DNA of 64,000 bases, from positions 1-64,000 of the IMG/VR virus record IMGVR_UViG_3300006789_000016, one strand, 5' to 3'. A program made the translations under genes and the position numbers. Position 1 is the stretch's first letter, and each line of letters begins with the position of its first letter. Positions 3,106-22,432 of the stretch are shown here, one piece after another. The DNA comes from an uncultured virus (IMG/VR IMGVR_UViG_3300006789_000016). Lineage: Duplodnaviria > Heunggongvirae > Uroviricota > Caudoviricetes. Under the pieces are notes generated by a model that was not told the origin of the DNA, made no database searches, and was given only the letters and a program-made list of their open reading frames with translations.

Positions 3106-3136
3106 GAGAAGGGGAGGGTAACTCCTCCCCTTTCTC
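3106..3136 (+). terminator. GC-rich stem-loop between the MoxR and VWA genes
   Basis: GAGAAGGGGAG-GGTAACTC-CTCCCCTTTCTC inverted repeat just after the stop codon; U-tail is weak. Confidence 0.55.
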
Positions 3137-3167
3137 ATTCAAAACTACTACACAAGTAGGAGAATAA

Positions 3168-5081: not shown

Positions 5082-5103
5082 ACAGCTTTCTCCAACCAAA
5101 AGA

Positions 5104-5131
5104 GAGGGGAACACAAATTTGTGTTCCCCTC
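5104..5131. repeat. Perfect 28-bp palindrome (hairpin, terminator or operator)
   Basis: GAGGGGAACACAAATTTGTGTTCCCCTC equals its own reverse complement. Confidence 0.9.
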
Positions 5132-5145
5132 GCAGGTTTATAACA

Positions 5146-6456
5146 ATGGACTCTATTGCTTTTACCCCAACATATAATCTGAAATCTAGTAATCCTATTT
5201 CAAAAATGGGAAAAAAGTATCTTCAGTCAATTCATCAACTAAGTGCTTTGTATTGTGTAACTAAATCTCAAAGAATAGATGCAGAACTATTGAAAAATGA
5301 AATGTATAGTACTTTAATATATCCAATATTATTTACAGTAACTACAGATACAGACATTTTTCATAGAGTGGTCGCTTCACAAAATGTACTTACAAAACTA
5401 ATTAAAAATACAGAACAAGGAGATATGTTTTTGAGTCTTCCTCCTTGGGTGAATGATTTAGAAGATCAAAGCGATGCCGAAATCCATGGGACAACTATTT
5501 TTACCCAAATTGAAGGGAAAAATATAGTCTTCTCTCATCCAGAGACAGTTGTGGGCCTTGCAGATTTTGGGATACAACTTACAAAAGGATGTAATTCAAA
5601 ATACTGGGCTCTTCCCATTTCTTTAAAGAAAGATTTTACAATACCTTTATCTATAGGAGAAACAGTAGCTGCATTTACAGAAGCAGAACACCAACAATTT
5701 CTTAAAATTTATCAACAAACTTTACAGGGAAATATATATGTTGGAAATCTTATTCATAATGCTGCTCCTAGTACTTTAAAATATTCTCTTTTTTCTATCA
5801 AAGAAATAGGATTATTTCTTGGGTATATCAATTATATACTTCTTTATTCAAGCAGTTACCCCACCCTTGGTGCTGAACTTCACAATGCATTGCTAGATTC
5901 GAAAAGTACTTCAGATCAGATCAATAATTTGTTTGATCAAGTTAATAAAAGAAAATCATGGATTTCCTCGATTGCTTCTTATCCTACAATTAAAACAAAT
6001 ATAATTCAAATTCAAAACATTGCAAAACAAGTATCGATAGCAAGTCTTTCTTACTCAGCCTGTATTGGACCTGTCAGTCTCCCTGAAAACTCAATGCAAA
6101 CAAAAGAAAAGAAAGATATTAAATATAATATTCAATTCAGAATTCTCGATAAAAATAGACTAAGGGTTCAGTGTAAAAAGACTGGTGGATACGCATCAGA
6201 AGCATCTTATATATTTGACCTGTCCTCATCTTCAATCCTCTTACAAGCAAAGAATCTTTCTGACTTTAAAGAAAGAGATGTTCAGTTACTTATTCAAGAA
6301 AAACAACTTCAACATCTTTCTTATGAAAAATCTTCATTTTATAAAGGCAGTGACCAATATTATTGTAAAGGAATATATGACCCAGCAAAAGGTCTTCTTG
6401 TCAGTATCAACGGAACAAAAACATTAATTGCAAAAGCAACAGAACTACAATTCTAA
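5146..6456 (+). CDS. Hypothetical protein
   Basis: Long AT-rich ORF. The track start at 5011 overlaps the HTH gene and the palindrome, so ATG 5146 is preferred. Confidence 0.6.
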   Translation: MDSIAFTPTYNLKSSNPISKMGKKYLQSIHQLSALYCVTKSQRIDAELLKNEMYSTLIYPILFTVTTDTDIFHRVVASQNVLTKLIKNTEQGDMFLSLPPWVNDLEDQSDAEIHGTTIFTQIEGKNIVFSHPETVVGLADFGIQLTKGCNSKYWALPISLKKDFTIPLSIGETVAAFTEAEHQQFLKIYQQTLQGNIYVGNLIHNAAPSTLKYSLFSIKEIGLFLGYINYILLYSSSYPTLGAELHNALLDSKSTSDQINNLFDQVNKRKSWISSIASYPTIKTNIIQIQNIAKQVSIASLSYSACIGPVSLPENSMQTKEKKDIKYNIQFRILDKNRLRVQCKKTGGYASEASYIFDLSSSSILLQAKNLSDFKERDVQLLIQEKQLQHLSYEKSSFYKGSDQYYCKGIYDPAKGLLVSINGTKTLIAKATELQF

Positions 6457-6466
6457 AGGAAAATCA

Positions 6467-7228
6467 ATGAGTAGCGGATATCATTATGGCGGATCAGGCT
6501 TTGGACAAAATATTGGTTGGTGTTTTGACACCAAAAATATAGAATTTTGGGGCTCATCAAAATCAAAATTAGATGATGTGTTAGATTCCACAGGTGAAGA
6601 CTTTGCAGATACTGACCTTATCATTAACTGCACTGGGCTCCCCTATACTATTAAACCTTTTATTAAGTCTGCTCCGACATGGCTTTTAAAAGAAAACAAA
6701 ACAGAAAAAAGTTTGTCTCTTCCGCAACCACATCAATTAGTTCTTGAATGGAAAGACTTTAGTCCTCCCCCTAGGCATTATGAAAACCTAGATTTTTGGA
6801 AAAATATAGTAACAAGAGCAGAAGAACATGGAATCAAACGAATTTTTGTTTGCTGCCAAGGAGGTAAAGGACGTACTGGGACTGCTCTTTCTGCTCTTAT
6901 GATGGCGACAAACATGGCCGAGGATCCATTCCAGGCTATTAATCGAGTTAGAGAAAACTATACAGAAAAAGCAGTAGAAACAACTAGTCAAACTAAATAT
7001 CTCATCAACTGTTTCTATCCAGAAGGAGAAGAAAGAACTGAAGTTTATGATTATTTAGATCAGTTAGAAAAACAACGCCGAGCAGCTGAAAAATCAAAGA
7101 CAACCACTAAATGGAAGCGTCCACAATCAAATCAAGCTATAGCCGATGATGATCTCTATGAGGATGTTCTTGATGATGATACAGAAGATTCTGTCTCTTT
7201 TAAAACGTCTTATTCCAGCTACAAGTAA
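6467..7228 (+). CDS. Cys-based dual-specificity / tyrosine phosphatase family protein
   Basis: CX5R P-loop VCCQGGKGRTGT, WKDFSPP acid-loop equivalent, AINRVR...AVETTSQ; ATG 6467 follows an AAGGA RBS. Confidence 0.85.
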   Translation: MSSGYHYGGSGFGQNIGWCFDTKNIEFWGSSKSKLDDVLDSTGEDFADTDLIINCTGLPYTIKPFIKSAPTWLLKENKTEKSLSLPQPHQLVLEWKDFSPPPRHYENLDFWKNIVTRAEEHGIKRIFVCCQGGKGRTGTALSALMMATNMAEDPFQAINRVRENYTEKAVETTSQTKYLINCFYPEGEERTEVYDYLDQLEKQRRAAEKSKTTTKWKRPQSNQAIADDDLYEDVLDDDTEDSVSFKTSYSSYK

Positions 7229-7256
7229 AGAAGAATTGCAACTAGGTGCAAAAACA

Positions 7257-9095
7257 ATGTCTTTTATTAAAAAGAAAAATATTGATGATGAGGTTCATCT
7301 ATATGAAGAATATGCCCAAAAGGGAAATATCTTTCAGCCATCTAAAAATGTGAAAAAGATTAAAACTCAAAAAGCAAAAGGTGTCCTTGCTATTGAAGAG
7401 TATGCAATCCATGTTCAGTCTGTTAGGTGGAGCATTAACAGACATCTCTTGTTTGAGGCTGGGAGAGAATTTACTAAAGAAAATTTTAATTACCCTGTCT
7501 TTGTAAGACCGTGTCCTACAGTACCCAGACATGGTTTTGTAGACTCAACAACATGCAAGACAGCCACACAATTAAACAAAATCTCTAAACAAACCCATAA
7601 GGTTGAACCTAAAGCAGAATTACTTATTACCAAACCTATTCCTGCTACATATAGTGCGATCATCTCTGGTGATAGAATTACTTTTGGACCAGGAAATGAT
7701 GGAGCTACTTCCGGCAAGCAATGTCAATCTTTATATATCTCTGAGCCAGATTATCTCAGGCAACATATTATTAAAGACAATTGCGGGATAACCGAAGACC
7801 AGATTCCTTATTATGAATTAGTTTGTACTCAAAGAGAAACATTTCTTGTTCAAGTACGTGGGGGACCAGAGCTTCCTACATCAAAAAACTTTGTTCCGAA
7901 TCAACTTATAGTAAACAAAGTAGTTAAAGCCGAGGGTGACCTTTTAAAATGGGAAACCATTGTAAGATCACTAAATCCTAAAACTACAGTTATTGATCAC
8001 ACTGAAGGAACCCTCTCCTCTCATTACGCTGTTCACGCTATTCTAAACAACATTCCTATTTTTACTGAAAACTGTCCTCGGGTTGGTGACTTGGTTGTTC
8101 CTACCGAGGCTGCAAATGAAATTACAGATGAAGAAAGAAAAGAATTTGCTAATGCTTACCTTTTCGGTCTCTCTAATATCAATACAGTTCTTAAAGAAAA
8201 TAATGGGGGAGTAGATTTCTTTCGCCGCTCAACCAGACAGATTGTAGAGCTTGCTGTTGCATGTTTACATAACTTTAGTGCTCTCTATCGTCACAGAGAC
8301 TGGAAGCTCTTAGGGACGACTCTAGGCTTGTTCGCAAGGGTTTGTTACTCTGTCTCTGCAGGAGAAATGAGACACGCTAACTCTAAAGCAAATAAAGAGT
8401 GGAAGAATATAAAAGCTTGTCATACACATGAAGAGCGTGGGAAAACTTACCGTAAAAATTTATGTCTTAGTGCCCCAGATGTTCAAACAAGCATTGAAGA
8501 TATTTGCAAAGGCTTTAGCATTAAAGGTTGGGAGTCAGGATTTGGAGGAAAAGCATGGGCTAATTGTACTTCTTCAATCATGGAGCTACACAATCATTGT
8601 GTTGACGGGGATATCAAAGAAGCAGTTGCTCAATTCAATAATGTTATTCATGAAGAACATAACGGTGGCCTATATCTTAACAAAGTAGTTAATTCTGGTA
8701 TCTTTGATACTGCTGCTAGAAACTCAACTCTGTTTATGTTTCAGAATTTAAAAAATAGTATTCATATTCTTGGTAGTCTTTATAATCAATCACAACCAAA
8801 AGAATATTGTCTTCGCAAACTTTTTATTTCAGCTTCTGCTCAACCAAAAACTCAACCAAAAAAGGCAGAGCCTACAGATATGACAATTAAAAGAACAGGA
8901 AAACAAACACTTCTTACTTCTCCCGATATTTGTATTGACCTTACTAATGATTACAGTTGGGATTTATGGAATACCACAGAAAAAGAAACTCCACTTTACT
9001 CTGGAAAGATTCCTTATTGGTATACAAATAGCAAAGGAAAGAAAGTTATATCTAAAGCAAAGGTAACTAAACTATGCAAACAAAACAAGTCATAA
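7257..9095 (+). CDS. PPDK/PEP-synthase-like protein: ATP-grasp-like domain, phospho-His swivel domain and unknown C-terminal domain
   Basis: QKAKGV, YPVFVRPCP...HGFVDS and YELV...FLVQVRG resemble the PPDK/PEPS nucleotide-binding domain. EGTLSSHYAVHAILNNIPIF resembles the GGxTSHAAIxARxxGIP swivel motif. Confidence 0.6.
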   Translation: MSFIKKKNIDDEVHLYEEYAQKGNIFQPSKNVKKIKTQKAKGVLAIEEYAIHVQSVRWSINRHLLFEAGREFTKENFNYPVFVRPCPTVPRHGFVDSTTCKTATQLNKISKQTHKVEPKAELLITKPIPATYSAIISGDRITFGPGNDGATSGKQCQSLYISEPDYLRQHIIKDNCGITEDQIPYYELVCTQRETFLVQVRGGPELPTSKNFVPNQLIVNKVVKAEGDLLKWETIVRSLNPKTTVIDHTEGTLSSHYAVHAILNNIPIFTENCPRVGDLVVPTEAANEITDEERKEFANAYLFGLSNINTVLKENNGGVDFFRRSTRQIVELAVACLHNFSALYRHRDWKLLGTTLGLFARVCYSVSAGEMRHANSKANKEWKNIKACHTHEERGKTYRKNLCLSAPDVQTSIEDICKGFSIKGWESGFGGKAWANCTSSIMELHNHCVDGDIKEAVAQFNNVIHEEHNGGLYLNKVVNSGIFDTAARNSTLFMFQNLKNSIHILGSLYNQSQPKEYCLRKLFISASAQPKTQPKKAEPTDMTIKRTGKQTLLTSPDICIDLTNDYSWDLWNTTEKETPLYSGKIPYWYTNSKGKKVISKAKVTKLCKQNKS

Positions 9096-9164
9096 TAGAC
9101 CTTATTAGAATAAACTATAAACAATTTTCAACACTGTTAATTAAAGATTTAATTAGGAATAAAA

Positions 9165-9593
9165 ATGAATGTAAAGCAGGTTATTGTTGTAAGAACAAAA
9201 TACCCCGATAATAAAGGGGGAACACGAAAATTAAGAACGGGAAAACTTATGGCACAAGCCGCTCATGCTTCAATGAAAGTCTTTCTCGACATGATGGCTG
9301 AAACAACTTATGAAAACAGTCCATACAGTTCCTTTTTTATGGAACTAAGCCACACAAGCCCTGTATATCACTGGCTGTCTGGTCCTTTTGCAAAGATCTG
9401 TTGTTATGTAGAGAGTGAAAAAGATCTATTGGACTTATATTACAGAGCCCGCGCAGCGGGCCTTCCTGCTAGTCTTATTAAAGACTCGGGCAAGACTGAA
9501 TTCCATGGTGTTCCTACCAATACATGTATTGCTATAGGACCAGCAGAGAATAAAGATATAGATAAGATCACTGGAGATTTGAAACTACTATGA
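9165..9593 (+). CDS. pth2: Peptidyl-tRNA hydrolase, Pth2 family
   Basis: KQVIVVR...GKLMAQAAHAS...KICC...IKDSGKTEF...TCIAIGP...IDKITGDLKLL. Confidence 0.92.
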   Translation: MNVKQVIVVRTKYPDNKGGTRKLRTGKLMAQAAHASMKVFLDMMAETTYENSPYSSFFMELSHTSPVYHWLSGPFAKICCYVESEKDLLDLYYRARAAGLPASLIKDSGKTEFHGVPTNTCIAIGPAENKDIDKITGDLKLL

Positions 9594-9847
9594 AAGAAAA
9601 TTGGAGAACAGACCCTCTTCCCAAAAGAAGGTTTTTCTTCTGGGGAAAGGGAGAAATAGATGGTGTCTTTTGTCACTCTATCTTTATAAGAGAACAAGAC
9701 TTTCATCCTGATGATCTCAAGCTTCCATATCGTCGAAGAAGAATGGTCTGGGGGCATAGAAGAATAGATATAATCTCTTGTCGTTGGAGTAGGGGAGAGC
9801 CTTACAGAATGAGGGGATGGTCTGAAATAGAAGAACCGCAGGATTAG
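9590..9847 (+). CDS. Hypothetical protein
   Basis: ATGA overlap with pth2. Confidence 0.5.
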   Translation: MKENWRTDPLPKRRFFFWGKGEIDGVFCHSIFIREQDFHPDDLKLPYRRRRMVWGHRRIDIISCRWSRGEPYRMRGWSEIEEPQD

Positions 9848-9848
9848 A

Positions 9849-10082
9849 ATGATATTAAAAAATATTATCTTAGATCTCTTGGAAAACAAGAGTAGACTTA
9901 AAAAACATAATCAATTACGTTCTCGAATAGAAAACTTTACTCCACCTGGTCAGCCAAATTATAGTTGTTCATTTCAGTTTGGTGGTTCACAATTAAGATG
10001 GAAGTGTGGTTGTGAACGAACCATCATGAACAAAACACACTATAACGAATTATGTCAGACACACCTAAATCAACTGAAGTAA
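9849..10082 (+). CDS. Hypothetical Cys-containing small protein
   Basis: Operon-like packing with neighbours. Confidence 0.45.
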   Translation: MILKNIILDLLENKSRLKKHNQLRSRIENFTPPGQPNYSCSFQFGGSQLRWKCGCERTIMNKTHYNELCQTHLNQLK

Positions 10083-10345
10083 AAGCTTACAAGAGACCAC
10101 GCCCTACACGTAGACAACTCAAGAGAGAAATACAGATAGGACGTGAACATATTGGAGAATTAGCAAGTTGGCAAAAAGGACGTGAACAACGTATAGCTAT
10201 TTGTCTTGGTCTTTCAAAGAATGCAACTCTGCCAATGATTGAAAAGGAGGCGCGGAGATTATACACTATCTCTCAGAAACAAGCACAGGGCACTTCTCTT
10301 CTTCCTAAAAAGACTAAAAAGAAAAAGACAAAATCCAAAGTATAA
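10052..10345 (+). CDS. Hypothetical basic protein
   Basis: Operon-like packing; Lys/Arg-rich. Confidence 0.5.
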   Translation: MSDTPKSTEVKAYKRPRPTRRQLKREIQIGREHIGELASWQKGREQRIAICLGLSKNATLPMIEKEARRLYTISQKQAQGTSLLPKKTKKKKTKSKV

Positions 10346-10392
10346 TATTCTTGTAGCCTTCAGGGCTCATAGACATAAAGGAGTAACTAGCT

Positions 10393-11271
10393 TTGGTTCA
10401 AGAGACTCTTCATACCGTTCACGTTGATCCCAACACATTGAATAATCTTTATAACAAGAATGCTGTTAAGATCAGTGATGTTAATTCTAACTATCCAATC
10501 CTTTCATCAGAAATTCTTTATCCTAATGCACAGCTTATCCTTAAGCATGAATCACAAAGTGCATTGGCTGTTATTGATCCCGCTTGCAATTTTATAGAGC
10601 TATGCTTTAGTAATAATGCACCGTTTGGCATTAGTCCTCGCAACACAGAACAAACAGTTCTAATGCATCAATTACAAAATGATGATATTAAGTTACAGAT
10701 TATTGCAGGAAAAGCTGGCTGCGGCAAGTCTCTGCTTGCAATGGCTTCAGGCCTTAGTAAAGTTCTAGAAGATAATCTGTATAAAAGACTAGTTATTACT
10801 AAGCCTACTTATCAAGTGGGAGAAAAGGGTGCCTTCGCCGCAGTCCCCGGTAATATTCAAGAAAAGTATGAACCTTATCTTATGAACTTCATGATGACTC
10901 TTGAAGAGTTAGGCATGGAGAGAGCTTATCTAAATATTATTAAAGAGAAAAGATTAATAGAATTTGTACCTCTGCAATTAATGAGAGGAATGTCTTTTAA
11001 AAACTGCATGGTAGTCGCTGATGAAGTACAGTCTCTATCAAGACATGAGATGCAAACTCTTTGCTCAAGAATTGGAGCTAACTCCAAGCTTGTTTTGCTT
11101 GGTGATCCAAGACAAATAGATAGAAGCATATCATTTAATGAAACAGGCCTTGCCCGTTTAATCAAATCTGACAGAATAAAATATTCTGATCTATGTGCTA
11201 TGACTCATCTAACAAAGAATGAAAGAAGTAGACTTAGTACATTATTAGATGATGTTCTTTTAGAAGACTAA
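10393..11271 (+). CDS. phoH: PhoH-family ATPase
   Basis: PRNTEQ, GKAGCGKS, VPGNIQEKYEPY, MRGMSF, ADEVQS, LGDPRQID; AAGGAG RBS before TTG. Confidence 0.92.
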   Translation: MVQETLHTVHVDPNTLNNLYNKNAVKISDVNSNYPILSSEILYPNAQLILKHESQSALAVIDPACNFIELCFSNNAPFGISPRNTEQTVLMHQLQNDDIKLQIIAGKAGCGKSLLAMASGLSKVLEDNLYKRLVITKPTYQVGEKGAFAAVPGNIQEKYEPYLMNFMMTLEELGMERAYLNIIKEKRLIEFVPLQLMRGMSFKNCMVVADEVQSLSRHEMQTLCSRIGANSKLVLLGDPRQIDRSISFNETGLARLIKSDRIKYSDLCAMTHLTKNERSRLSTLLDDVLLED

Positions 11272-11321
11272 TCTTTTTCAAAAGATTATGGGAAAGGAAG
11301 AGGGTAAAACCTCTCCCTGTT

Positions 11322-11660
11322 TTGTTTATGATTATAAAATCTTACACTGATTCAGAATGTGTTGTCCTTTGTATCTTCTGTACTATAACTTATCGTTTAA
11401 TAAGTAATTTTATTTTAGAGTGTTCTCTTGATCATGGCAATGGGGCTCATGATTATATAATCATGAGGCCTGGCGATAATATTATTCCAGGAGATCTTAT
11501 TGCCTCAAACTGGTTATACCCACTCACCAAGTGGCAAGAAAATCTTAAGAAAGAAATAATAGAAATTGAATATAAATATATAACTATAGGGAAAGAGTTT
11601 CCTAAGATACTTCAAATACTGCAGGAAAGGATTAAACGATGGGATACATCAGAGAATTAG
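11322..11660 (+). CDS. Small protein, shared C-terminal motif group A
   Basis: C-terminus EIEYKYITIGKEFPKILQIL. Confidence 0.55.
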   Translation: MFMIIKSYTDSECVVLCIFCTITYRLISNFILECSLDHGNGAHDYIIMRPGDNIIPGDLIASNWLYPLTKWQENLKKEIIEIEYKYITIGKEFPKILQILQERIKRWDTSEN

Positions 11661-11959
11661 ACCTGCCACCTGGCAGTAAATATAGATGTATATACGGTGT
11701 TCATCTTAAAATTAAAAGAAAGAGGGAGCACTATACTGGATGGACTTTTTATGCTTCTGCAGACCATCTCAACAGATGGAGACTAACACCTACTCTAGGG
11801 TATGGAAAAACATATTTGTCTTCCGAAGCACAAGAAGAATTTGTAAAAATTCTCCTTAACCTAGAGTATGAGCACCTAACTTCTGGTGATAAGACTTACT
11901 TCCCTAATCTATATCCAGTACTGAGAAAATTAGAAAATGATGCAGATAAAAAAGGTTGA
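11639..11959 (+). CDS. Small protein, group A
   Basis: C-terminus NLEYEHLTSGDKTYFPNLYPVLRKLE. Confidence 0.6.
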   Translation: MGYIRELDLPPGSKYRCIYGVHLKIKRKREHYTGWTFYASADHLNRWRLTPTLGYGKTYLSSEAQEEFVKILLNLEYEHLTSGDKTYFPNLYPVLRKLENDADKKG

Positions 11960-12188
11960 AGATATCTATGAATGGAAACCTATCCATATTCATATAGAAA
12001 AAAATAGTTATCAACTGTCAACAGAGTGGTCTCGAAATGAATCGGTAACAAACCTCTCGCCTTTTTATCGAAAAGATTTATTAAATTGCTTGCAAAACTT
12101 ACAATACAAAGCTATAATAACTGAAGATAAAGAGTTCTTTCCAGAACTCTTACCACTATTAAAAGCATTAGAAGAAATAGATCAATAA
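11937..12188 (+). CDS. Small protein, group A
   Basis: C-terminus NLQYKAIITEDKEFFPELLPLLKALEE. Confidence 0.6.
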   Translation: MMQIKKVEDIYEWKPIHIHIEKNSYQLSTEWSRNESVTNLSPFYRKDLLNCLQNLQYKAIITEDKEFFPELLPLLKALEEIDQ

Positions 12189-12191
12189 TTA

Positions 12192-12518
12192 ATGACTGAA
12201 AAATATATTCTCAAAGTAAAAACCTGGGCCCCAATTAGTTTTCATAAAAATGAAGATGATAGAATCATTGCTTTCGCAGACAAGCCGCGCAAAAAATATA
12301 TTCTATCAGAAAAACCACTCTATCTTTCAGGGTTTGACGGCTGGGCTGATCATTGGTTATGCAAAACAAAAGAAACTTTAGAAGATTCAATATATGAGTC
12401 TCTTCTTTGTGGCAATAAAGAACAATTAGATTTAATAGAAAGACTTTTATTTCTTACCAAGAAAGCAATTTATTTTCAAACTATTAGTAATCGAAAAAAT
12501 ATATATCAAAATGAATAG
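12192..12518 (+). CDS. Small protein, group A
   Basis: C-terminal region DSIYESLLCGNKEQLDLIERLL. Confidence 0.55.
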   Translation: MTEKYILKVKTWAPISFHKNEDDRIIAFADKPRKKYILSEKPLYLSGFDGWADHWLCKTKETLEDSIYESLLCGNKEQLDLIERLLFLTKKAIYFQTISNRKNIYQNE

Positions 12519-12759
12519 AGAAGAATTAATCCAAAGTATAGAACACTCCTTAAACTCATCTGGTCTATCAGACAGAGAGAAAGTACGTGCACTTAGCAAT
12601 GTCTTGATTGACTATGGATGTGCACTTGAGTCTATATCTGAACCAGTTACCACCACCACACTTAAAAAGATAGAGCAAGACTATTATCAGTCCCCAACCT
12701 TGGGTAAAGCTCTTATCATGCAAGGAAGCCTCATGCTTACATGGGGTGCAACACATTAA
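12511..12759 (+). CDS. Hypothetical protein
   Basis: Overlapping operon packing. Confidence 0.55.
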   Translation: MNREELIQSIEHSLNSSGLSDREKVRALSNVLIDYGCALESISEPVTTTTLKKIEQDYYQSPTLGKALIMQGSLMLTWGATH

Positions 12760-12788
12760 ACACAAATAAAAATAACAGGATAAATCAT

Positions 12789-13316
12789 ATGGAAACATTG
12801 TATATCAACCGTCCCAATCAGTACGCTATTTACAAAGGCATTAAAGGAAATAACGGAGCCATTCAATTTAACTTGATTCCGTTTGACCCCGCGCGTGCAA
12901 ACGTAGATGATGATCGCAAACTGCAAGAAAAAGACAAAAAAGGTTGGTTGCTTATCGATGCAGCCAGTGCTTCTGGACCCAATCAATATGATTGGAGCAC
13001 AGATATTAAATTCTCTATGTCTGAAACAGATATTGGCAAGTTTCTTGTTGGTATCGGTCGAATGGGGAGTGAAGGAGACACTTTAGTTAATATCTTTCAC
13101 AAACATGAAAAGACAGGGGCCACTAAGAAACTAATCATTACACAAGGCAGAGTGTATCAAGGTAATCCAACCTGGATGTTTGCTCTTCTTTGTACAGACA
13201 GTACAGGCACTCGAAATGTCAATGTACCTATTAGCAAAGACGAAATGCTTGTTCTGAAGCTTCTGCTTGAAGCAGCAGTTCCCTCTATTCTTGGATGGAG
13301 TGCTCGTAGTGTCTAA
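12789..13316 (+). CDS. Whirly-family (PC4-like) ssDNA-binding protein
   Basis: YAIYKG...GWLLIDAASASGPNQYDWSTDIKFSMSETDIG...IFH...NVPISKDEMLVL...AVPSILGW follows the plant Whirly domain (IYKGKAAL...G.RQYDW.RKQ.FSLS.TEIG...FFHD...IP.TKAEF...P.LLGW) along its length. ACAGGA RBS before ATG 12789. Confidence 0.8.
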   Translation: METLYINRPNQYAIYKGIKGNNGAIQFNLIPFDPARANVDDDRKLQEKDKKGWLLIDAASASGPNQYDWSTDIKFSMSETDIGKFLVGIGRMGSEGDTLVNIFHKHEKTGATKKLIITQGRVYQGNPTWMFALLCTDSTGTRNVNVPISKDEMLVLKLLLEAAVPSILGWSARSV

Positions 13317-13659
13317 GCCAATTGTAAATGCACATATCTTCGCTCAACTTTTTGACGAAATGGCTTGGGGTGGTCTAGTCTTACTAGAAAGTTCTGAATT
13401 TGAAAAACAACAAAGATTAGAATTTACACTTCCCTTACCCGCTAACGCTGATCCTTCTTATGCTGAAGAGTCAGTTGTTTATGAGGCTAGCAAAATGCTT
13501 CCCATGAGATTAAAATGGCCTGACTATATTGTCACAAATTTTATTGTCTCTTCTGAAGAAGTAAAGAAAAGAGTTGAATCTAACGAACACATAAGTAAAA
13601 ATATGAAACAATATGCCTACCAAACAACCGTCAGAAAAAACGATAGCACTGGAGAATGA
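13309..13659 (+). CDS. Hypothetical protein
   Basis: GTG 13309 with GGAG RBS, overlapping the Whirly stop codon. Confidence 0.55.
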   Translation: MSKPIVNAHIFAQLFDEMAWGGLVLLESSEFEKQQRLEFTLPLPANADPSYAEESVVYEASKMLPMRLKWPDYIVTNFIVSSEEVKKRVESNEHISKNMKQYAYQTTVRKNDSTGE

Positions 13660-13996
13660 AAAGGGAGAGATGCTTAACCTCTTAGATTTGGTCTCACAAA
13701 TCTTAGACAAAAGCACATCATCTCAAATAGATGAAAAATCTCAACTTCTTTCAGCAATTAGTGCAACTCAAATTGTTAAAGATATGGGACAACGAGGATC
13801 AGATGAGGTTATTGCCTTATATAAAATCTATCCAAACTTGATACCTTTACTGGCTGGTGTATTCCAGACAGGGCTTAAACTTGGCCTATTCATTGCACGA
13901 AAAAACATTAAGATTACATTACAGGAATCTAATGCAGAAAGTGATCAGTCAAGTAGCCAAACTAATAGTTCCAATAGTCATACCGATTCTAATTGA
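13613..13996 (+). CDS. Hypothetical protein
   Basis: Operon-like packing. Confidence 0.55.
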   Translation: MPTKQPSEKTIALENEKGEMLNLLDLVSQILDKSTSSQIDEKSQLLSAISATQIVKDMGQRGSDEVIALYKIYPNLIPLLAGVFQTGLKLGLFIARKNIKITLQESNAESDQSSSQTNSSNSHTDSN

Positions 13997-14067
13997 GATG
14001 ACTCTTAAAGAGTTCTTCGGATTATCTGAAGACAAAATAAAACAACATGTAGAAAACAGGAGAAAAA

Positions 14068-14409
14068 ATGAGTGATTTGAAAGTAACCAATGTAAAGTTC
14101 TGGCCGCGCACCGGTAACGGTGCCCTCAAGGCTTTTGCCGATGTAGAGTTTAACGGAGAGATGACCGTCAAGGGATTCTCTGTGTTCTCTGGTCAGAACG
14201 GCATCTGGGCGAAGGCCCCTTCCGACAGAGTAGAAAAGAATGGTGAGACGCAGTATTACCCGCGTATCATGTTCCGTTCTACCGGCGAGGAGAAGAGTAC
14301 TCATCCAGTGCTCAAGGCCATTGTCGATGCTTATACTGGTGGTTCGTCTGCCCAGACTAAGTCTACCCCTCAACCGGCAGATGCAGGTCTTGGTAGCGAT
14401 CCCTGGTAA
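14068..14409 (+). CDS. spoVG: SpoVG-family nucleic-acid-binding protein with flexible C-terminal tail
   Basis: LKVTNVKF...LKAFADVEFNGEMTVKGFSVFSGQNGIWAKAPS...G...Y matches SpoVG; CAGGAG RBS. Confidence 0.8.
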   Translation: MSDLKVTNVKFWPRTGNGALKAFADVEFNGEMTVKGFSVFSGQNGIWAKAPSDRVEKNGETQYYPRIMFRSTGEEKSTHPVLKAIVDAYTGGSSAQTKSTPQPADAGLGSDPW

Positions 14410-14430
14410 ACATAGAGTAACTCTCAAAAC

Positions 14431-14465
14431 AAGGGGCGGGGAGAAATCTCCGCCCCTTTGTTATT
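14431..14465 (+). terminator. Rho-independent terminator after spoVG
   Basis: AAGGGGCGG...CCGCCCCTT stem followed by TGTTATT. Confidence 0.75.
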
Positions 14466-14478
14466 GAAAAGAGAACGC

Positions 14479-14637
14479 GTGGACAAATTCAAAAATATAG
14501 AGCCCAACCTTATTGAATTGTTTAAATTTATTCGTCAGTTCTATCCTAAATTAGAGCAAGAAATTGTATACAAAGCTCTTCTTACCGACAAGAAGAGTAA
14601 ATTTGTACAATATATTCTAGAAGAAGGAGAAGAATAG
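14479..14637 (+). CDS. 52-aa protein, group A (below the ORF-track cutoff)
   Basis: Manual translation from GTG: MDKFKNIEPNLIELFKFIRQFYPKLEQEIVYKALLTDKKSKFVQYILEEGEE; its stop abuts the next GTG. Confidence 0.55.
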   Translation: MDKFKNIEPNLIELFKFIRQFYPKLEQEIVYKALLTDKKSKFVQYILEEGEE

Positions 14638-14955
14638 GTGATAAACTGGGGAAGTCCTTCCAATATAGTTTTATCCAAGATTGATTTAAGACCTGGATTC
14701 TCCTGGAGACTTACTTACAAATGTTGGGGTTGGCATATACACTTCTTTCATAAAAGCAATGGTACTTGGTATTGGCAACACAATCCAGACATACTTAGCT
14801 ACGCACGACCATTAACAATTCCCCCCGAGCCTGTACGTCGAGAGGAATTTAAAAATTGGATAAAAGATAAACTTTATATTCAGTTAATAACCCCAACAAA
14901 AAACAATGAACTTATAGAGGTTTTAGAAACAATGCTTGTTGAAGCAGAGGATTGA
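14638..14955 (+). CDS. Small protein, group A
   Basis: FKNWIKDKLYIQLITPTKNNELIEVLETML. Confidence 0.6.
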   Translation: MINWGSPSNIVLSKIDLRPGFSWRLTYKCWGWHIHFFHKSNGTWYWQHNPDILSYARPLTIPPEPVRREEFKNWIKDKLYIQLITPTKNNELIEVLETMLVEAED

Positions 14956-15298
14956 GGTGGGTTTGCCACCACCATATAAAATGAAGCTAGAGAAAGTTAA
15001 AAACACTTGGGTTTTAACTTTTCGTACATTTGGAAACCATTGTATTTCTATTAACAAATCACAAGAAGGATGGTTCTTCGAGACTATCGGCAGAGGTCTT
15101 GCCATAACAGATTCTATCGACAAGCTTCTTCTTCGAACATATCTATCTCATTATCCATATCTATATAGATTTAAAGCATGGCTAGAAGAAGAACTCTATA
15201 CAGCATGGATGACAGATAATCCCGAACACTTAGAGATTTTGGAAATTCTATTAAATAATACTAAAAAGCATATACAGCGGTGGGAAACAAAACTATGA
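14936..15298 (+). CDS. Small protein, group A
   Basis: FKAWLEEELYTAWMTDNPEHLEILEILL. Confidence 0.6.
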   Translation: MLKQRIEVGLPPPYKMKLEKVKNTWVLTFRTFGNHCISINKSQEGWFFETIGRGLAITDSIDKLLLRTYLSHYPYLYRFKAWLEEELYTAWMTDNPEHLEILEILLNNTKKHIQRWETKL

Positions 15299-15801
15299 AA
15301 GAAACACTTGAAACCCTTAAAAAAGGGAAAGAAAAACTTAAAGAATTCTCTACTCTTATTGGGACTCACTATCTTGTTGATGGGAAGACTCCCGATCAGT
15401 GGAGACAAGAATTTACTATTAACATAGGAAAAGACCCGAACATTGAAGAAGTGCGCCGGACTTCTGCCGCTCTTGTTCGGCTCATCAATATTGCATCTTT
15501 CTATAAAGCTAATGCTCAATTAGTCTTTGATGGTATTAGTCATGGTTCTCACGACCAGTACCTCAGTGCTTTTGAAAAGCAAGTAGACAAATATAAGGTT
15601 GATGGTAAACGACTTCCATCACAGAAAACACTTGAGTCTCTAGCAGAAAGCTCAATGAAAGATCTTAACTCTGCTAAAGCTAATGCTGGAATGAAGCTTC
15701 GCTTCTGGAAAGATATTGTCCAAGGTCTTGTTGAGCAAAGGAAAAGCTTAGAAATGATTATGTGGTCAATCAATATTGAAATGAAGAAAGAAACATACTG
15801 A
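15280..15801 (+). CDS. Helical hypothetical protein (possibly a UvsY-like recombination mediator)
   Basis: All-helical coiled-coil pattern and size recall UvsY-like proteins; no firm motif. The confidence reflects the CDS, and the UvsY idea is weak. Confidence 0.5.
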   Translation: MGNKTMKETLETLKKGKEKLKEFSTLIGTHYLVDGKTPDQWRQEFTINIGKDPNIEEVRRTSAALVRLINIASFYKANAQLVFDGISHGSHDQYLSAFEKQVDKYKVDGKRLPSQKTLESLAESSMKDLNSAKANAGMKLRFWKDIVQGLVEQRKSLEMIMWSINIEMKKETY

Positions 15802-15803
15802 TT

Positions 15804-16172
15804 TTGTTCAATATGTCTGTTACTTACTCATGGCCGCCACCATCACGAGTTAAATACTATTTTTTCTTTGAAGAAAAAGAACTCTCTTTAAAGAGAGTTC
15901 TTATTATCTCTTCCTCTAGAAAACCTGCTTATTTATGTAAAGTAAGCTCTCTTATCTATGGAGGAAAGAATCGCTGGCGTGCGCCTGAAGATGTTGTGTG
16001 GAGAAATCTTGAAGAAAGTCTTGCATTGAAAACATCTTTTTATTGCAAAGCTCTTCAAGAGGCAGCAAAAGAAAAATATTACAAGCTCATTATGAATAAT
16101 TTAGATAATTGGATACTTCAACCTCTTCAAGAATTGATAGATATAGACCTTAGTCAGATTGTGAGAGACTAA
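15804..16172 (+). CDS. Small protein, group A
   Basis: AAKEKYYKLIMNNLDNWILQPLQELI; N-terminal WPPPS resembles LPPGS/LPPPY of other members. Confidence 0.5.
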   Translation: MFNMSVTYSWPPPSRVKYYFFFEEKELSLKRVLIISSSRKPAYLCKVSSLIYGGKNRWRAPEDVVWRNLEESLALKTSFYCKALQEAAKEKYYKLIMNNLDNWILQPLQELIDIDLSQIVRD

Positions 16173-16274
16173 TGGGTGCTCCTATAGTCAAACCACTTAC
16201 ATCCCATATACCCATATGATGAAAGAAAAAGAAGATACATTAGAAATTTCTATTCTTACAGCTTTGTATAAAGC

Positions 16275-16303
16275 TTTACTAGAAGTTCAGCATACAGTAT
16301 AAT
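16275..16303 (+). promoter_or_regulatory. Candidate sigma70-type promoter for the redoxin-nrdJ unit
   Basis: TTTACT, 17-nt spacer, TATAAT, about 20 nt upstream of ATG 16324 with AAGGAG RBS. Confidence 0.45.
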
Positions 16304-16323
16304 AAGCACCCCAAGGAGAATAA

Positions 16324-16962
16324 ATGCCAACAACTTTTCTATTACTATTGAGCTGTACTCAAGACATTTTCGATACAGCAGCAGAAGAAGACGGTTGGCT
16401 CGGAGGATCACCGGAGACTCCTATCATTGTAGACTTTACAGAATCTGAAGTAGAAGATACCGGGGTGGTTAAAGAAAACAACCTAACTGAAATAATAGAA
16501 GAAAATTGTTATGTTCAAATGGGTACAAAACTTTGTGACTTCACCTTGACAAATCAGATGGGAACAGATATTACTCTTTCCGATTATTCAGGATCTTATA
16601 TTCTATTAGATTTCTCTGCAATGTGGTGCGGACCTTGTCAAAGTGCAGCAGCTGCAGCCCAGGATCTTCAAAATAATTATTCTGACAAGAATGTTAAATA
16701 CATTATTGTCTTACTTGAGGATTATTACAGTCAAGAGTTAGACTTAAAAGATCTTAATGATTGGTCAGACACATTTGGCCTAACAACTATAAATACATTG
16801 GGCGGATCAAGAGCATTGCTTCAGTCAAGCGGAGGACCATATCCTCTTTCATCCTGGCCCACCTTTTACTATATTAATAAGGAAGGAATTGTAGAGTATT
16901 ACCACTCTGGATATTCAGAAGAAGCTCTACAACATAACCTCGATTACTTAACCTCGCAATAA
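16324..16962 (+). CDS. TlpA/ResA-like thioredoxin-fold lipoprotein
   Basis: Lipobox-like LLLSC; DFTLTNQMG; LLDFSAMWCGPC; cis-Pro loop WPTFYYINKEG. Confidence 0.85.
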   Translation: MPTTFLLLLSCTQDIFDTAAEEDGWLGGSPETPIIVDFTESEVEDTGVVKENNLTEIIEENCYVQMGTKLCDFTLTNQMGTDITLSDYSGSYILLDFSAMWCGPCQSAAAAAQDLQNNYSDKNVKYIIVLLEDYYSQELDLKDLNDWSDTFGLTTINTLGGSRALLQSSGGPYPLSSWPTFYYINKEGIVEYYHSGYSEEALQHNLDYLTSQ

Positions 16963-16981
16963 GTCTCTATACAGGCTCGAG

Positions 16982-19390
16982 ATGACCTATACAGAAGAGC
17001 AAGCCAAGCAGGCTTGCTTAGAATACTTTAATAATGATTTTTTAGCTGCAGATACTGTTGTTAAAAAATATCTACTCAGAAACCTTAATGGTGAACTATT
17101 AGAGGTCTCTCCAACAGACATGCATCGGCGTTTGGCTAAAGAATTTGCACGAATTGAAAGTAATTACCCTAGTCCTCTTTCAGAAGAAGAGATTCTTTCA
17201 CAACTTGAAAGATTTTCTAAGATTATTCCTCAAGGTTCTCCCATGTATGGGATTGGAAATCCAAGACCTGTGTCTTTGAGTAATTGTGTTGTGATTGATA
17301 GTCCTAAAGATAATATCTCTGCAATCTTTGAAGGTGCACGAGATATTGCGAACCTAAGCAAAAGACGATGTGGAATTGGTGTAGACATTAGTCAGCTACG
17401 ACCAGACGGGACTGTTGTTAACAATGCAGCACAGACGACTACTGGAGCTTGGAGCTTTGCTGATCTTTACAGCTATACGCTAAGAAAGATTGGACAAAAA
17501 GGCCGGCGAGGTGCTGGTATGATCTCTATAGATGTACGACATCCAGATATAGAGAAGTTTATTACCATGAAAAAGGATCTAACTAAAGTTACTGGCGCTA
17601 ATATTAGCATTAGAATCAGAGATGATTTTATGGAGGCAGTAGAAGCCGACACTGACTTTACTTTACGTTGGCCTGTGGATAGTAAAAACCCAAGCATTAC
17701 AAGAATAGTAAAAGCAAAAGAGCTATGGAGTTTAATCACAACAACTGCCACGACTACAGCAGAGCCTGGACTAATGATGTGGGATAACATCATCAATCAT
17801 CTTCCAGCTCACTGTTATAAAGGATTTGAAACATTAACAACCAACCCTTGCGGCGAGGTCCCCTTGTCTGCTTATGATAGTTGCCGTTTGATCACTATAA
17901 ATCTAACTTCTTTTGTCCAGAATCCCTATACTTCACAGGCTAATTTTAATATAGATGATTTTAAAAACACAGTTCGCATTGCTATGCGTCTTTGTGATGA
18001 TCTAGTAGATCTTGAGCTTGAAAAACTTGAATTGATTTATCAATCTGCAGATACAGAAGATGAAAAAGTTTTATGGCAACAACTCAGAAATTCTTGTGAA
18101 AAAGGACGCCGCACTGGCTTAGGAACAACAGGCCTTGCAGATGCACTAGCTATGCTTAACCTTGAATATGGGTCAACAAATAGTCTTTATCATATAGAGA
18201 ATCTTTATGAAATATTTAAGTTAGAAGCTTACAAAGAATCAGCAAGTCTTGCACAAGAAAGAGGAGCATTTCCCGTTTGGAAACCAGGCGTAGAAGAAGA
18301 CTGTAAGTTCTTTGATCCTTTTCCTTTGGGGCTTGTTGAAAAGATGGAAGCTCATGGACGCCGAAACATATCTATCTTAACAAATGCTCCAACAGGATCA
18401 TGTTCTATCTTAGCTCAATGTTCATCAGGAATAGAGCCTATCTACAGATTAGAGTACACACGTAGAAAGAAATTATCTCATGACGAACTAGAAAATAGTT
18501 CAGATTTTATCGACAAAGATGGAGAGAAGTGGAAAGAGTTTACTGTCTTCCATCATGCCTATAATGAATATAGAAAACTAACAAAGAAAACTACTTCTTC
18601 AAAGTTTTTCGTTACCTCTGATCAAATAGATTGGAGTGCTCGTATTGACGTACAGGCAGCCATACAGCGGCATATTGATCACAGCATTAGCTCGACCATC
18701 AATCTACCCAAAGGAACACCTGTAGACGTCGTTAAAGAGCTTTATATGAAAGCCTGGAAGGAAGGCCTCAAGGGAGTTACCGTTTATGTAGAGGGGTCTC
18801 GAGCAGGTGTTCTGGTATCGAAAGATATTCAATCAACCAAAGACTTGATTACAGAAACAACAGCTCCTAAACGACCACAAGAACTTCCTTGTGAAATCCA
18901 TCATAGATCTGTGAAGGGCGAGAAGTGGACAATCTTACTTGGTCTATTAGACGATAAACCTTATGAAGTATTTGCCGGACCTGCAGAAAATATTGATATT
19001 GCCACTAAATTTACAACTGGAACAATCTTTAAATATCCAAGAAAAACAATTAACTCAAGATATGATTTAGAGTATGGGGAGAACGGCGGGACAACAAAGA
19101 TAAAGAACATTGTTAAGTGGTTTGAAAACGATGACTATGGAACAATGAGTCGTCTTGTCAGCATGAATTTAAGACATGGTGTACCTATCCATTACATCTG
19201 TGAACAATTACAGAAAGATCCCAACGGAGATCTTCTCAGTTTTAATAAAGTATTAGGACGTGTTCTCAAAACTCATATTCCAGACGGAACAGACAGAGAT
19301 AGAATCTGTGGCGAATGTAATAACGAAGGCCTGACTTACCAAGAAGGCTGTTTGACATGTACTTCTTGCGGCTACACTAAGTGTAATTAA
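16982..19390 (+). CDS. nrdJ: Class II (adenosylcobalamin-dependent) ribonucleotide reductase
   Basis: SLSNCVV, RRGAGM, TTNPCGEVPL, NAPTGS, SSGIEP, ISSTINLP, C-terminal Cys-rich zinc ribbon; no beta-subunit gene nearby. Confidence 0.92.
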   Translation: MTYTEEQAKQACLEYFNNDFLAADTVVKKYLLRNLNGELLEVSPTDMHRRLAKEFARIESNYPSPLSEEEILSQLERFSKIIPQGSPMYGIGNPRPVSLSNCVVIDSPKDNISAIFEGARDIANLSKRRCGIGVDISQLRPDGTVVNNAAQTTTGAWSFADLYSYTLRKIGQKGRRGAGMISIDVRHPDIEKFITMKKDLTKVTGANISIRIRDDFMEAVEADTDFTLRWPVDSKNPSITRIVKAKELWSLITTTATTTAEPGLMMWDNIINHLPAHCYKGFETLTTNPCGEVPLSAYDSCRLITINLTSFVQNPYTSQANFNIDDFKNTVRIAMRLCDDLVDLELEKLELIYQSADTEDEKVLWQQLRNSCEKGRRTGLGTTGLADALAMLNLEYGSTNSLYHIENLYEIFKLEAYKESASLAQERGAFPVWKPGVEEDCKFFDPFPLGLVEKMEAHGRRNISILTNAPTGSCSILAQCSSGIEPIYRLEYTRRKKLSHDELENSSDFIDKDGEKWKEFTVFHHAYNEYRKLTKKTTSSKFFVTSDQIDWSARIDVQAAIQRHIDHSISSTINLPKGTPVDVVKELYMKAWKEGLKGVTVYVEGSRAGVLVSKDIQSTKDLITETTAPKRPQELPCEIHHRSVKGEKWTILLGLLDDKPYEVFAGPAENIDIATKFTTGTIFKYPRKTINSRYDLEYGENGGTTKIKNIVKWFENDDYGTMSRLVSMNLRHGVPIHYICEQLQKDPNGDLLSFNKVLGRVLKTHIPDGTDRDRICGECNNEGLTYQEGCLTCTSCGYTKCN

Positions 19391-19695
19391 TGTCTCAAGA
19401 TGAATATTCAGAGATGGGCAAACAAATACTAAGAGCCGTTTTCACCTCAGCCGTTTTTGACTACAATAAATATGTTGTCAGAAAGCGCCTTAAGCCCAAA
19501 GAAGCATTAGCTTTCTCTACTGCAAGTCGTCTGTTATTTGACGATGATTATCGAATATTGTATGGGGACTGGGAGCTTTCTCTCGAAGAGCTTCTTTCTG
19601 TTATTAATGATAACAAAGAAGTAGATCTCGAAATAGTTAGAGAAAATATTATAAACAAGGCTTATCAGAGAAAATCAAGAAAAAAGAAAACATGA
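19390..19695 (+). CDS. Hypothetical protein
   Basis: TAATG coupling to nrdJ. Confidence 0.55.
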   Translation: MSQDEYSEMGKQILRAVFTSAVFDYNKYVVRKRLKPKEALAFSTASRLLFDDDYRILYGDWELSLEELLSVINDNKEVDLEIVRENIINKAYQRKSRKKKT

Positions 19696-20261
19696 TTCCT
19701 CCAGTAAAAATTCTTAAAATTAAAGACGAGACTGAACTAATCTTAGAGCTTGGCTCAACTGAAATTAGTTTTGTAAATGGATGTTTTGAATTACCTCATA
19801 TGGGGTATGCAACATTCTTTTGTGAAGTCTTAGCTCAAGCGAACATGATGTCTCTTACTTTTAAAATAACAGAATTGAGAAATGCCAAATATACATTTGG
19901 ACATACCCTACTGATAGCTGTCAATGACGACGAGTCTTTCAGAAAAGTTCGAGGAACAAAACCACTTTACAAGTGGGATGAAAGAGTTGATACATTAATA
20001 TCTTGTCTTCAGGGACTTACTTCTAGGAATACTTTGTTTTCAGATATTGATAAAATTATTTTCTTTAAAATGGAAGAGACTAATCCCTGCAAATTACTTA
20101 GAGTAGTTCAGCCAGGTTATATCTATAAAGGCTCAGAATATAAATATAAACAAATTCCTGAGAAAAAAGTTATCAAAAGTTATGGTGGAGAAATTAATTG
20201 GATTAAAAATCCAGTCACAATACATGGCTCTGATATTAAAAAAAGAATTCTAGAAGGATAA
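19692..20261 (+). CDS. RfaE domain II / HldC-like sugar-1-phosphate nucleotidyltransferase
   Basis: FVNGCFELPHMGY (cf. NGCFDILHxGH), LLIAVNDDESFRKVRG, P...ER, NPCKLLRVVQP...KGSEY, VIKSYGGEI. Confidence 0.75.
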   Translation: MIPPVKILKIKDETELILELGSTEISFVNGCFELPHMGYATFFCEVLAQANMMSLTFKITELRNAKYTFGHTLLIAVNDDESFRKVRGTKPLYKWDERVDTLISCLQGLTSRNTLFSDIDKIIFFKMEETNPCKLLRVVQPGYIYKGSEYKYKQIPEKKVIKSYGGEINWIKNPVTIHGSDIKKRILEG

Positions 20262-20263
20262 AA

Positions 20264-21310
20264 TTGGAACAACAGAATACCTACAAGAAAAAAGACCCAA
20301 CTCAAATTGATGCCCTCTTAGCTAGACTAACAAAGTCTATGGGCAAGGGAACTATTTTCAGACAAACAGAAGAAAGAGTTTCCGCCTGGCCCGCAATCAG
20401 TACTACTTCACTATCTTTAGACCATGCATTAGGTATTGGAGGAGTTCCCCAAGGAAGATTTGTTGAACTTCTGGGGATGGAGAGTAGTGGCAAAACCACA
20501 ATGGCGTTACATATGATTGCTGAAGCTCAAAAATTAGGAGCAACAGTCGCTTTCGTTGACGCAGAGCATGCTCTTGACCCCAACTATGCTGCAGCTCTTG
20601 GGGTAGATATGGACAACATGTTAATCTCTCAGCCCAATACTGGAGAAGAAGCACTGAATATAGTTGATGAGTTAGTTCGTTCTCAATTGATTGATCTTGT
20701 TGTTGTAGACTCTGTCGCCGCCCTTGTACCGAAGGCAGAACTGGAAGGCGGGATGGATGAACAGCAAATGGGGCTACAAGCAAGACTCATGAGTAAAGCT
20801 TGTCGAAAGCTTACACCACTTGCTCATAAAAACAACGTAACCGTTCTTTGGATTAATCAATACAGAAGCAAGATAGGAGTCTTCTTCGGCTCTCCTCATG
20901 TTGGGGCAGGAGGAAATGCATTGAAATACTACTGTTCAGTTCGAATGAAAGTCAGTCGAACAAAGACAGAGAAAACCCAGGGAGAAGCGACTCATAACAG
21001 GACTAAGGTAGAAATTATTAAAAACAAAATGGCACCACCATACAAGCAAGCACAGTTTGACATTCGCTTTGGCGTTGGCATAGATCAAGTTGGAGAACTT
21101 ATTGATATTGGTGTCTTGCATAAAATTATTAGAAAAGCAGGTCCTTACTTTTATCTAGAAGCGGAGAACGTTAAATTAGGTCAAGGGAAAACTAATTCCA
21201 TTAACTTCTTAAAGGAAAATCCTGAAATACAAACTCAATTGAAAACAGCTGTCATAGATGCTCTCTATCCCCAAGAGGAGGACGAGGAGATTATGGATGG
21301 CCTGGAGTAG
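20264..21310 (+). CDS. recA: Recombinase RecA
   Basis: GMESSGKTT, FVDAEHALDP, VVVDSVAALVPKAELEG, GLQARLMSKA, GGNALKYY, KNKMAPPYK. Confidence 0.97.
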   Translation: MEQQNTYKKKDPTQIDALLARLTKSMGKGTIFRQTEERVSAWPAISTTSLSLDHALGIGGVPQGRFVELLGMESSGKTTMALHMIAEAQKLGATVAFVDAEHALDPNYAAALGVDMDNMLISQPNTGEEALNIVDELVRSQLIDLVVVDSVAALVPKAELEGGMDEQQMGLQARLMSKACRKLTPLAHKNNVTVLWINQYRSKIGVFFGSPHVGAGGNALKYYCSVRMKVSRTKTEKTQGEATHNRTKVEIIKNKMAPPYKQAQFDIRFGVGIDQVGELIDIGVLHKIIRKAGPYFYLEAENVKLGQGKTNSINFLKENPEIQTQLKTAVIDALYPQEEDEEIMDGLE

Positions 21311-22429: not shown

Positions 22430-22432
22430 ATT

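Follow-up and report, generated by a model that had tools for sequence, protein, structure and literature searches.

The window, by which we mean the whole stretch of 64,000 bases analysed here, encodes on its + strand at 12789-13316 a phage protein of 175 amino acids (P0001) that belongs to the Whirly family by both sequence and fold. The same phage encodes a canonical OB-fold single-stranded DNA-binding protein (SSB), and the Whirly gene is always accompanied by a bacterial-type RecA in the 10 viral genomes examined. P0001 itself is one further member of the Whirly radiation and most likely not the SSB of the phage; we infer that it binds ssDNA and acts as a helper of RecA. The linkage of Whirly to RecA and the hypothesis of a RecA helper are the parts worth taking to the bench.

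Sequence and predicted structure of the phage Whirly

The homology to plant Whirlies that a sequence-only reading of this DNA had claimed is borne out by profile, sequence, fold and predicted tetramer. The landmarks on which that reading drew are all present and in order, namely IYKG (residues 14-17), GPNQYDW (63-69), FSMSETDIG (75-83), FH (103-104), VPISKDE (146-152) and PSILGW (165-170). The search with the Pfam profile, which it had named as a check, matched P0001 to Whirly (PF08536) with an E-value of 4.7e-11 and 43.1 bits against a cut-off of 23. Residues 45-157 of P0001 align to model positions 24-134 of 136, and a six-frame search of the record with PF08536 returned the same match. When P0001 was compared by phmmer with all PDB chains, the only significant matches were plant Whirlies, with E-values of 1.7e-8 for AtWHY3 and AtWHY2, 5.6e-7 for AtWHY1, 7.9e-7 for potato p24 and about 8e-4 for StWHY2. 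Eleven residues (Y15, K16, G52, Y67, D68, W69, F75, H104, K113, E152 and W170) are invariant in an alignment of 12 rows, of which 7 are from phages or metagenomes and 5 are eukaryotic. PHROGs provided no family for P0001, and tblastn and megablast searches of 50,697 phage records gave no match for P0001 or for positions 10000-30000 of the window.

The AF2 model of P0001, built on an alignment of 116 sequences, has a mean pLDDT of 94.5 and a pTM of 0.87, with no stretch of pLDDT below 50. The predicted elements follow the order β4-α-β4-α, with strands at 12-15, 24-30, 53-63 and 73-77, a helix at 79-90, the second set of strands within 98-148 and a final helix at 150-168. Structure prediction had likewise been proposed as a check, and the top Foldseek matches of the model are plant Whirly chains, which occupy the best 16 PDB rows (E 1e-9 to 1.5e-8, TM 0.64-0.75). 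These are followed by PUR-α and trypanosome MRP1/2 with E-values of 1e-4 to 4e-3.

The plant organellar Whirlies, i.e. potato p24/PBF-2 (StWHY1), StWHY2 and Arabidopsis WHY1-3 (PDB 1l3a, 3n1h, 4koo, 4kop and 4koq), share with P0001 a PF08536 match above cut-off, the β4-α-β4-α fold at the TM values given above, and the motifs YKG, YDW, the H of FFHDP, VP..E and LGW. P0001 differs from them in its 20-27% sequence identity, in having neither transit peptide nor C-terminal extension, in a four-residue insertion in the KGKAAL hairpin, in a helical insert (residues 31-52 of the AF2 model) between strands 2 and 3, and in being encoded by a phage and not by a nuclear genome.

The Whirly gene and its neighbourhood

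According to the ORF list and translation, the Whirly ORF opens with an ATG at 12789 and its stop codon ends at 13316. Inspection of the sequence revealed a Shine-Dalgarno-like AGGA (12777-12780, + strand) 8 nt 5' of this ATG, which supports 12789 as the start. A longer frame from an in-frame ATG at 12741 is less likely; the start at 12789 is favoured because close homologues begin at equivalent residues (M..YI.RP).

The gene is one of nine small, tightly packed genes that, from the spacing of the ORFs, form a putative transcription unit (11322-14409, + strand). Consensus scans placed a terminator-like site at 11299-11315, bracketing the unit on its 5' side, and a terminator-like hairpin of 12 pairs (8 G-C) with a T-rich tail at 14431-14458 (+ strand) on its 3' side; gene spacing and consensus hairpins together suggest an operon. 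Its last gene (14068-14409, + strand) is SpoVG-like, with a match to PF04026 at E 8.1e-8 and 32.7 bits against a cut-off of 29.6, while the NCBIfam SpoVG match (E 6.8e-6) is under the NCBIfam cut-off. The other seven genes of the unit gave no Pfam (to E = 1), PHROG or NCBIfam match. A second SpoVG-like gene was noticed in another viral contig, 3.7 kb upstream of Whirly (L033:1976-2284).

SpoVG proteins bind nucleic acids, and a SpoVG-like gene at the end of the same putative operon would suit a Whirly that is mainly an RNA binder in the manner of ChmC or trypanosome MRP1/2, for instance one that chaperones mRNA or organises translation or transport. MRP1/2 chains are among the fold matches of P0001 (E 5e-4 to 4e-3, TM 0.50-0.64). 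ChmC, from the nucleus-forming jumbo phages of the Chimalliviridae, is likewise a phage-encoded protein of Whirly fold, described as a homotetramer that binds single-stranded nucleic acid and prefers ssRNA (Kd 58 nM) to ssDNA (184 nM) (PMC11077065). By sequence and fold, however, P0001 groups with the ssDNA-binding plant Whirlies and not with MRP or PUR, and the gene context is one of DNA metabolism. P0001 is also set apart by the description of ChmC itself, according to which no similarity in sequence between that protein and known ones is detectable, its repeat is β-β-β-α and its N/G-rich C-terminal region is disordered (PMC11077065), whereas P0001 is a sequence-level member of PF08536 and has no disordered C-terminal region. 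A role mainly in RNA binding is thus considered unlikely.

The source phage

The IMG/VR virus record from which the window is taken is 74.5 kb long and rated 30% complete, and the window covers its first 64,000 bases. An identical Whirly protein occurs in two other IMG/VR records, the larger of which (G001; 151,482 bases, rated 85% complete) is 100% identical to the window over positions 1-20000 and contains collinear matches to eight 200-base probes taken across the window. G001 is a fuller assembly of the same phage. Among its products are matches to PHROG families of virion structural proteins, a protein of 2,088 residues that has an M23 peptidase domain as well as tape-measure or endolysin-like matches, and one of 688 residues that is 42% identical to proteins of the Xanthomonas jumbo phages XacN1 and Xoo-sp13. 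The stretch is present in sequencing runs labelled marine metagenome, and no RNA run is among the listed runs that contain it.

Pfam matches on the + strand of the window include PhoH, ribonucleotide reductase (RNR), ThyX, dUTPase, two resolvases, two ClpP and a primase-helicase with an intein. The bacterial-type RecA lies at 20264-21310 (PF00154, E 2.2e-107), followed on the same strand by a DnaE-type DNA polymerase III α subunit (23493-26804; PF07733, PF02811 and PF17657), a metallophosphoesterase of SbcD/Mre11-like type split by an intein (26801-28885; PF00149, PF14890, phrog_221 and phrog_7339) and a PD-(D/E)XK or Cas4-like exonuclease (29215-30432; PF12705, phrog_1706 and phrog_1990). The intein of the primase-DnaB-like helicase (39617-43324) carries a LAGLIDADG homing endonuclease.

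Several other features of this genome were recorded. A sugar-nucleotide and glycosyltransferase block of about 14 genes occupies 50697-63997 on the - strand, and includes a GDP-mannose 4,6-dehydratase-like protein, a DegT-type aminotransferase, two hexapeptide acyltransferases, a GFO/IDH/MocA oxidoreductase and glycosyltransferases of families 1, 2, 4 and 9. Since virion structural genes come next in G001, this block is phage DNA and not host flank. Cargo unusual for a phage comprises a PTH2-type peptidyl-tRNA hydrolase (9165-9593), the two ClpP-like proteases (36989-37552 and 46733-47440), a stand-alone response-regulator receiver domain (47762-48157) and an enzyme of the GMP reductase/IMPDH family (38456-39484). 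Beyond the window, G001 encodes a protein with a Tad2-like (anti-Thoeris) domain (L019:3035-3415), a PP2C/SpoIIE-type phosphatase (L019:2145-2783) and an M50-family peptidase fragment (L019:9738-10280).

A canonical SSB in the same phage

The sequence-only reading had noted that no OB-fold SSB is visible, which is true of the window and of the 74.5-kb record (no PF00436 match), and had gone on to suggest that Whirly may be the SSB of the phage. This second step did not survive the analysis of G001, which encodes a canonical OB-fold SSB (P0163) at 143423-143812, about 40 kb outside the window. P0163 matches PF00436 (1.5e-37), TIGR00621 (5.5e-39, above cut-off) and phrog_44 (3e-49), and its C-terminus (...SDEIPF) is the usual acidic-tip docking motif. 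P0001 itself has no SSB match in Pfam or NCBIfam. As the same phage encodes a canonical SSB, the premise of the earlier suggestion falls, and the phage having its own SSB makes Whirly most likely something other than the replicative one.

P0001 resembles an OB-fold SSB (PF00436, TIGR00621) in being a presumed ssDNA binder and a predicted tetramer encoded among replication genes, but its fold is unrelated and it has neither the linker nor the acidic tip through which partners are recruited. If Whirly were the main replicative SSB in place of an OB-fold protein, its location in a replication and nucleotide-metabolism arm, within a record devoid of a PF00436 match, would be expected. The 9 other Whirly-bearing viral records also gave no PF00436 match above cut-off (0 of 9), although 8 of them are fragments rated 26-65% complete and the search covered SSBs of the PF00436 type. 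The ninth (G005, the record of L025) is a 197.7-kb genome with terminal repeats, rated 100% complete, which encodes Whirly and RecA and has no PF00436 SSB. Replacement of the SSB by Whirly may therefore have occurred in other lineages; for the phage of the window, with its acidic-tipped P0163, a main-SSB role for Whirly is improbable. The Whirly of G005 was also seen to carry a coiled-coil-like C-terminal extension.

Predicted tetramer and the KGKAAL hairpin

P0001 predicted as four copies gave an assembly score of 0.92 against 0.01 for the best control. Of 30 proteins solved as one-chain pairs, 20 reach the mark set for this score, as does 1 of 23 solved as single chains. At least 90% of the contacts were common to all three runs, and the pLDDT of the partners was at least 88. 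The predicted interface is formed by the C-terminal helix (150-172), the helix at 79-87 and the N-terminus (5-12), so that P0001, like the plant Whirlies, is predicted to be a tetramer held through its C-terminal helix. Prediction thus speaks for the tetramer that the sequence-only reading had put forward for testing. Plant Whirly tetramers have been solved, and the high score may come from likeness to, or memory of, these structures.

The first hairpin of P0001 carries the four-residue insertion mentioned above (YKGIKGNNGAIQF versus plant YKG----KAAL). In the 12-row alignment, N22 of P0001 stands opposite the second lysine of the plant KGKAAL, and K19 falls within the loop. The YKG and GA[ILV] parts of the plant motif are therefore kept and the second lysine is not; KGKAAL defines the plant Whirlies and not the Pfam family PF08536, to which P0001 belongs. 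That second lysine has been linked to cooperative higher-order assembly of plant Whirly (PMC3245945). Since it is not conserved in position in P0001, higher-order assembly of the plant kind cannot be assumed for the phage protein. At its other end P0001 terminates in ...GWSARSV, five residues past the final GW, with no linker or acidic tip. P0001 is the domain alone, having neither transit peptide nor acidic tail, and its computed pI is 8.6.

This basic character would agree with an architectural or regulatory DNA binder that compacts phage or host DNA or acts as a transcription factor, and in plants WHIRLY1 has been described both as an abundant protein that compacts plastid nucleoids and as a transcription factor in the nucleus (PMC9070903). 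Against this, P0001 contains no helix-turn-helix or other sequence-specific module, the lysine of cooperative assembly is not conserved in position, and the recurrent gene context is one of nucleases, RecA and polymerase. We regard such a role as having little likelihood.

Linkage of Whirly to RecA and proposed function

RecA lies 7 kb downstream of Whirly in the window, on the same strand and in the same gene array as DnaE, the SbcD-like nuclease, the Cas4-like nuclease and two Holliday-junction resolvases. Every one of the 9 further viral records with a Whirly encodes RecA above the Pfam cut-off (E 1e-90 to 1e-128), although most of them are fragments rated 26-65% complete, and in all 9 it is located downstream of Whirly on the same strand. 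Nine of the 10 genomes have the two genes 7-15 kb apart, and in the tenth the distance is 30 kb. By comparison, a RecA-like gene at E ≤ 1e-30 is present in 234 of 50,697 records of the deposited phage reference collection, which is a different population of mostly cultured, smaller phages.

The 10 Whirly genomes have a common gene order, i.e. ClpP, Whirly, exonuclease, AAA ATPase or RNR, and RecA. This indicates that they probably represent one broad lineage, so the co-occurrence in 10 of 10 does not amount to 10 independent events. Details of the module vary: in six or seven of the genomes (L024 and L028-L033) it runs from ClpP through a Top1-type zinc-ribbon protein, a small ORF, Whirly, a 3'-5' exonuclease or RNase H and a HIRAN-like protein to an AAA ATPase of about 590 residues. 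L023 has Whirly followed by RNR, as in the window. A reverse transcriptase (RVT_1) is located upstream in L028, L031 and L032, and an HNH gene stands beside it in L028 and L032.

A division of labour between Whirlies and canonical SSBs has been reported for plant organelles in an October 2026 preprint, where WHY1, WHY2 and WHY3, and not the canonical mtSSB1/2, stimulate strand exchange by Arabidopsis RecA in vitro (10.64898/2026.10.24.761589). The nicked-circle product of AtRecA1 rose from under 10% to 41-51% with Arabidopsis WHY1 and WHY3, and WHY2 supports AtRecA3, whereas the canonical mitochondrial SSBs even inhibit (10.64898/2026.10.24.761589). Plant Whirlies reportedly stimulate RecA of bacterial type, and the phage Whirly resembles them further in being encoded together with such a partner. 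A phage equipped with all three, canonical SSB, bacterial-type RecA and Whirly, fits, by analogy, the division seen between plant Whirlies and mtSSB.

The function we lean towards is that of a tetrameric ssDNA binder which helps RecA in recombination-dependent replication or repair, and this role of a RecA helper is more likely than that of main SSB. Mechanistically, the minimal Whirly would assemble via its C-terminal helix into a whirligig-like homotetramer and bind single-stranded nucleic acid on the blades of its β-sheets. As a second, specialised ssDNA binder of a module for recombination or recombination-dependent replication, it could coat resected or displaced ssDNA and help the bacterial-type RecA of the phage in strand exchange, in the way reported for plant Whirlies and organellar RecAs. 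A caveat to the RecA-helper reading is that the immediate neighbours of Whirly are all without a family match, save the SpoVG-like gene, and that RecA is not adjacent. Phage Whirlies with their RecA offer a simple bacterial or phage system for testing the cooperation of the two proteins, a question newly raised for plant organelles (10.64898/2026.10.24.761589).

Relatives outside plants and the origin of the family

Plant Whirlies are termed plant-specific in a 2022 review (PMC9070903) and were counted among the eukaryotic components of plastid nucleoids in a 2015 study (PMC4758235). A search with a HMMER profile, built from the three closest sequences, of 1.84 billion cluster representatives (clustered at 50% identity) found 503 relatives at E ≤ 1e-3, of which 160 reach ≤ 1e-10 and 8 reach ≤ 1e-30. 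Among the 150 best of these 503, most are 140-200 amino acids long, a length that leaves no room for a transit peptide. A word-indexed search of 5.8 billion proteins retrieved only 3 relatives.

Motif-seeded scans of IMG/VR yielded the 9 further viral records with a Whirly copy, at 29-37% identity. The Whirly ORFs of 9 of the 10 scanned loci match PF08536 (E 5e-11 to 9.5e-21) and that of L031 was detected by tblastn only; L027 and L028 are one contig, and L027 was left out of the locus scan for this reason. Two motif scans of 185,579 genomes, each standing for one prokaryotic species, confirmed 0 and 2 loci, and as narrow motifs were used these counts do not show absence from bacteria. Both loci are on contigs of archaeal metagenome-assembled genomes (MAGs). 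One such contig, of 61,922 bp from a Pacearchaeota MAG (NZCX01000010.1, L027/L028), has the length and the matched range of an IMG/VR viral record, and probably represents either viral sequence that was binned with an archaeal MAG or a virus infecting that host.

Whirly relatives of known source are mostly phage. The best viral fold match of P0001 in BFVD is UniProt A0A6J5NR37 (Foldseek E 1.8e-10, 30% identity, TM 0.83 by target), which bears the automatic name 'Whirly transcription factor [uncultured Caudovirales phage]'. In ESM Atlas, the nearest clusters are automatically named 'Whirly transcription factor domain-containing protein', and those of known taxon belong mostly to Viruses/Uroviricota. 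Phage Whirlies are therefore already known as automatic names in UniProt/BFVD and ESM Atlas; within the accessible part of the literature, no experimental or published description of these database-named proteins was found, and no paper on sequence-level phage Whirlies among those on phage, prokaryotic, PC4-like and algal Whirlies. Published fold-level relatives from phages and bacteria comprise ChmC, the PC4-like protein of T5, YdbC and the sensor domains of Shedu and Menshen. The last two were considered as sequence-level relatives and rejected, as their papers mention sensor domains of sPC4/Whirly fold only and not PF08536 members.

Phage Whirlies are material for tracing the origin of the plant proteins. 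A tree of 163 rows was built from P0001, 144 metagenomic representatives, the 9 viral-contig copies and 9 eukaryotic rows, the last being 6 angiosperm WHY1, two of GC-rich algal type and one other. WHY2 is absent from this set and algae are few; P0003 was left out, as were representatives of fewer than 135 residues. The 9 eukaryotic rows fall on one side of a branch with an SH-aLRT of 97 in this unrooted tree. P0001 is placed within a 12-row clade (SH-aLRT 99) that excludes the other 9 viral-contig copies. As 85 of 160 forks are open and the root is arbitrary, neither a direction of transfer nor a donor can be read from the tree. An origin of the plant proteins in phages or prokaryotes would fit it, and the reverse would fit it equally well. 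The sequence-only reading had placed the gene in a pattern of organellar replication proteins with phage relatives; the tree agrees with such kinship and lends no support to a direction of transfer.

Twinkle, the T-odd-like RNA polymerase and organellar PolI-like polymerases are organelle parts with phage kin. A wider proposal would see in Whirly and bacterial-type RecA an ancient, conserved pair that serves recombination in a large group of uncultured tailed phages. The Whirly-RecA partnership of plant plastids and mitochondria would then have been inherited from phages or prokaryotes, and would not have been invented by plants or eukaryotes. This we hold to be conceivable but rather doubtful; if true, Whirly would join these three among the genome-maintenance parts with phage kin.

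Searches from the eukaryotic side were also made. A region-restricted search with plant WHY1 returned only angiosperm WHY1s among the 120 matches listed, and a search with the algal-type P0114 gave 5 matches, with low-complexity words dominating. P0114, together with P0100 and P0164, is a GC-rich metagenomic Whirly of algal type; the three are 274-295 amino acids long with transit-peptide-like N-termini, carry the plant-type YKGKAAL/V, and end in ...DPPPF or ...ETPPF, recalling the tip of bacterial SSB.
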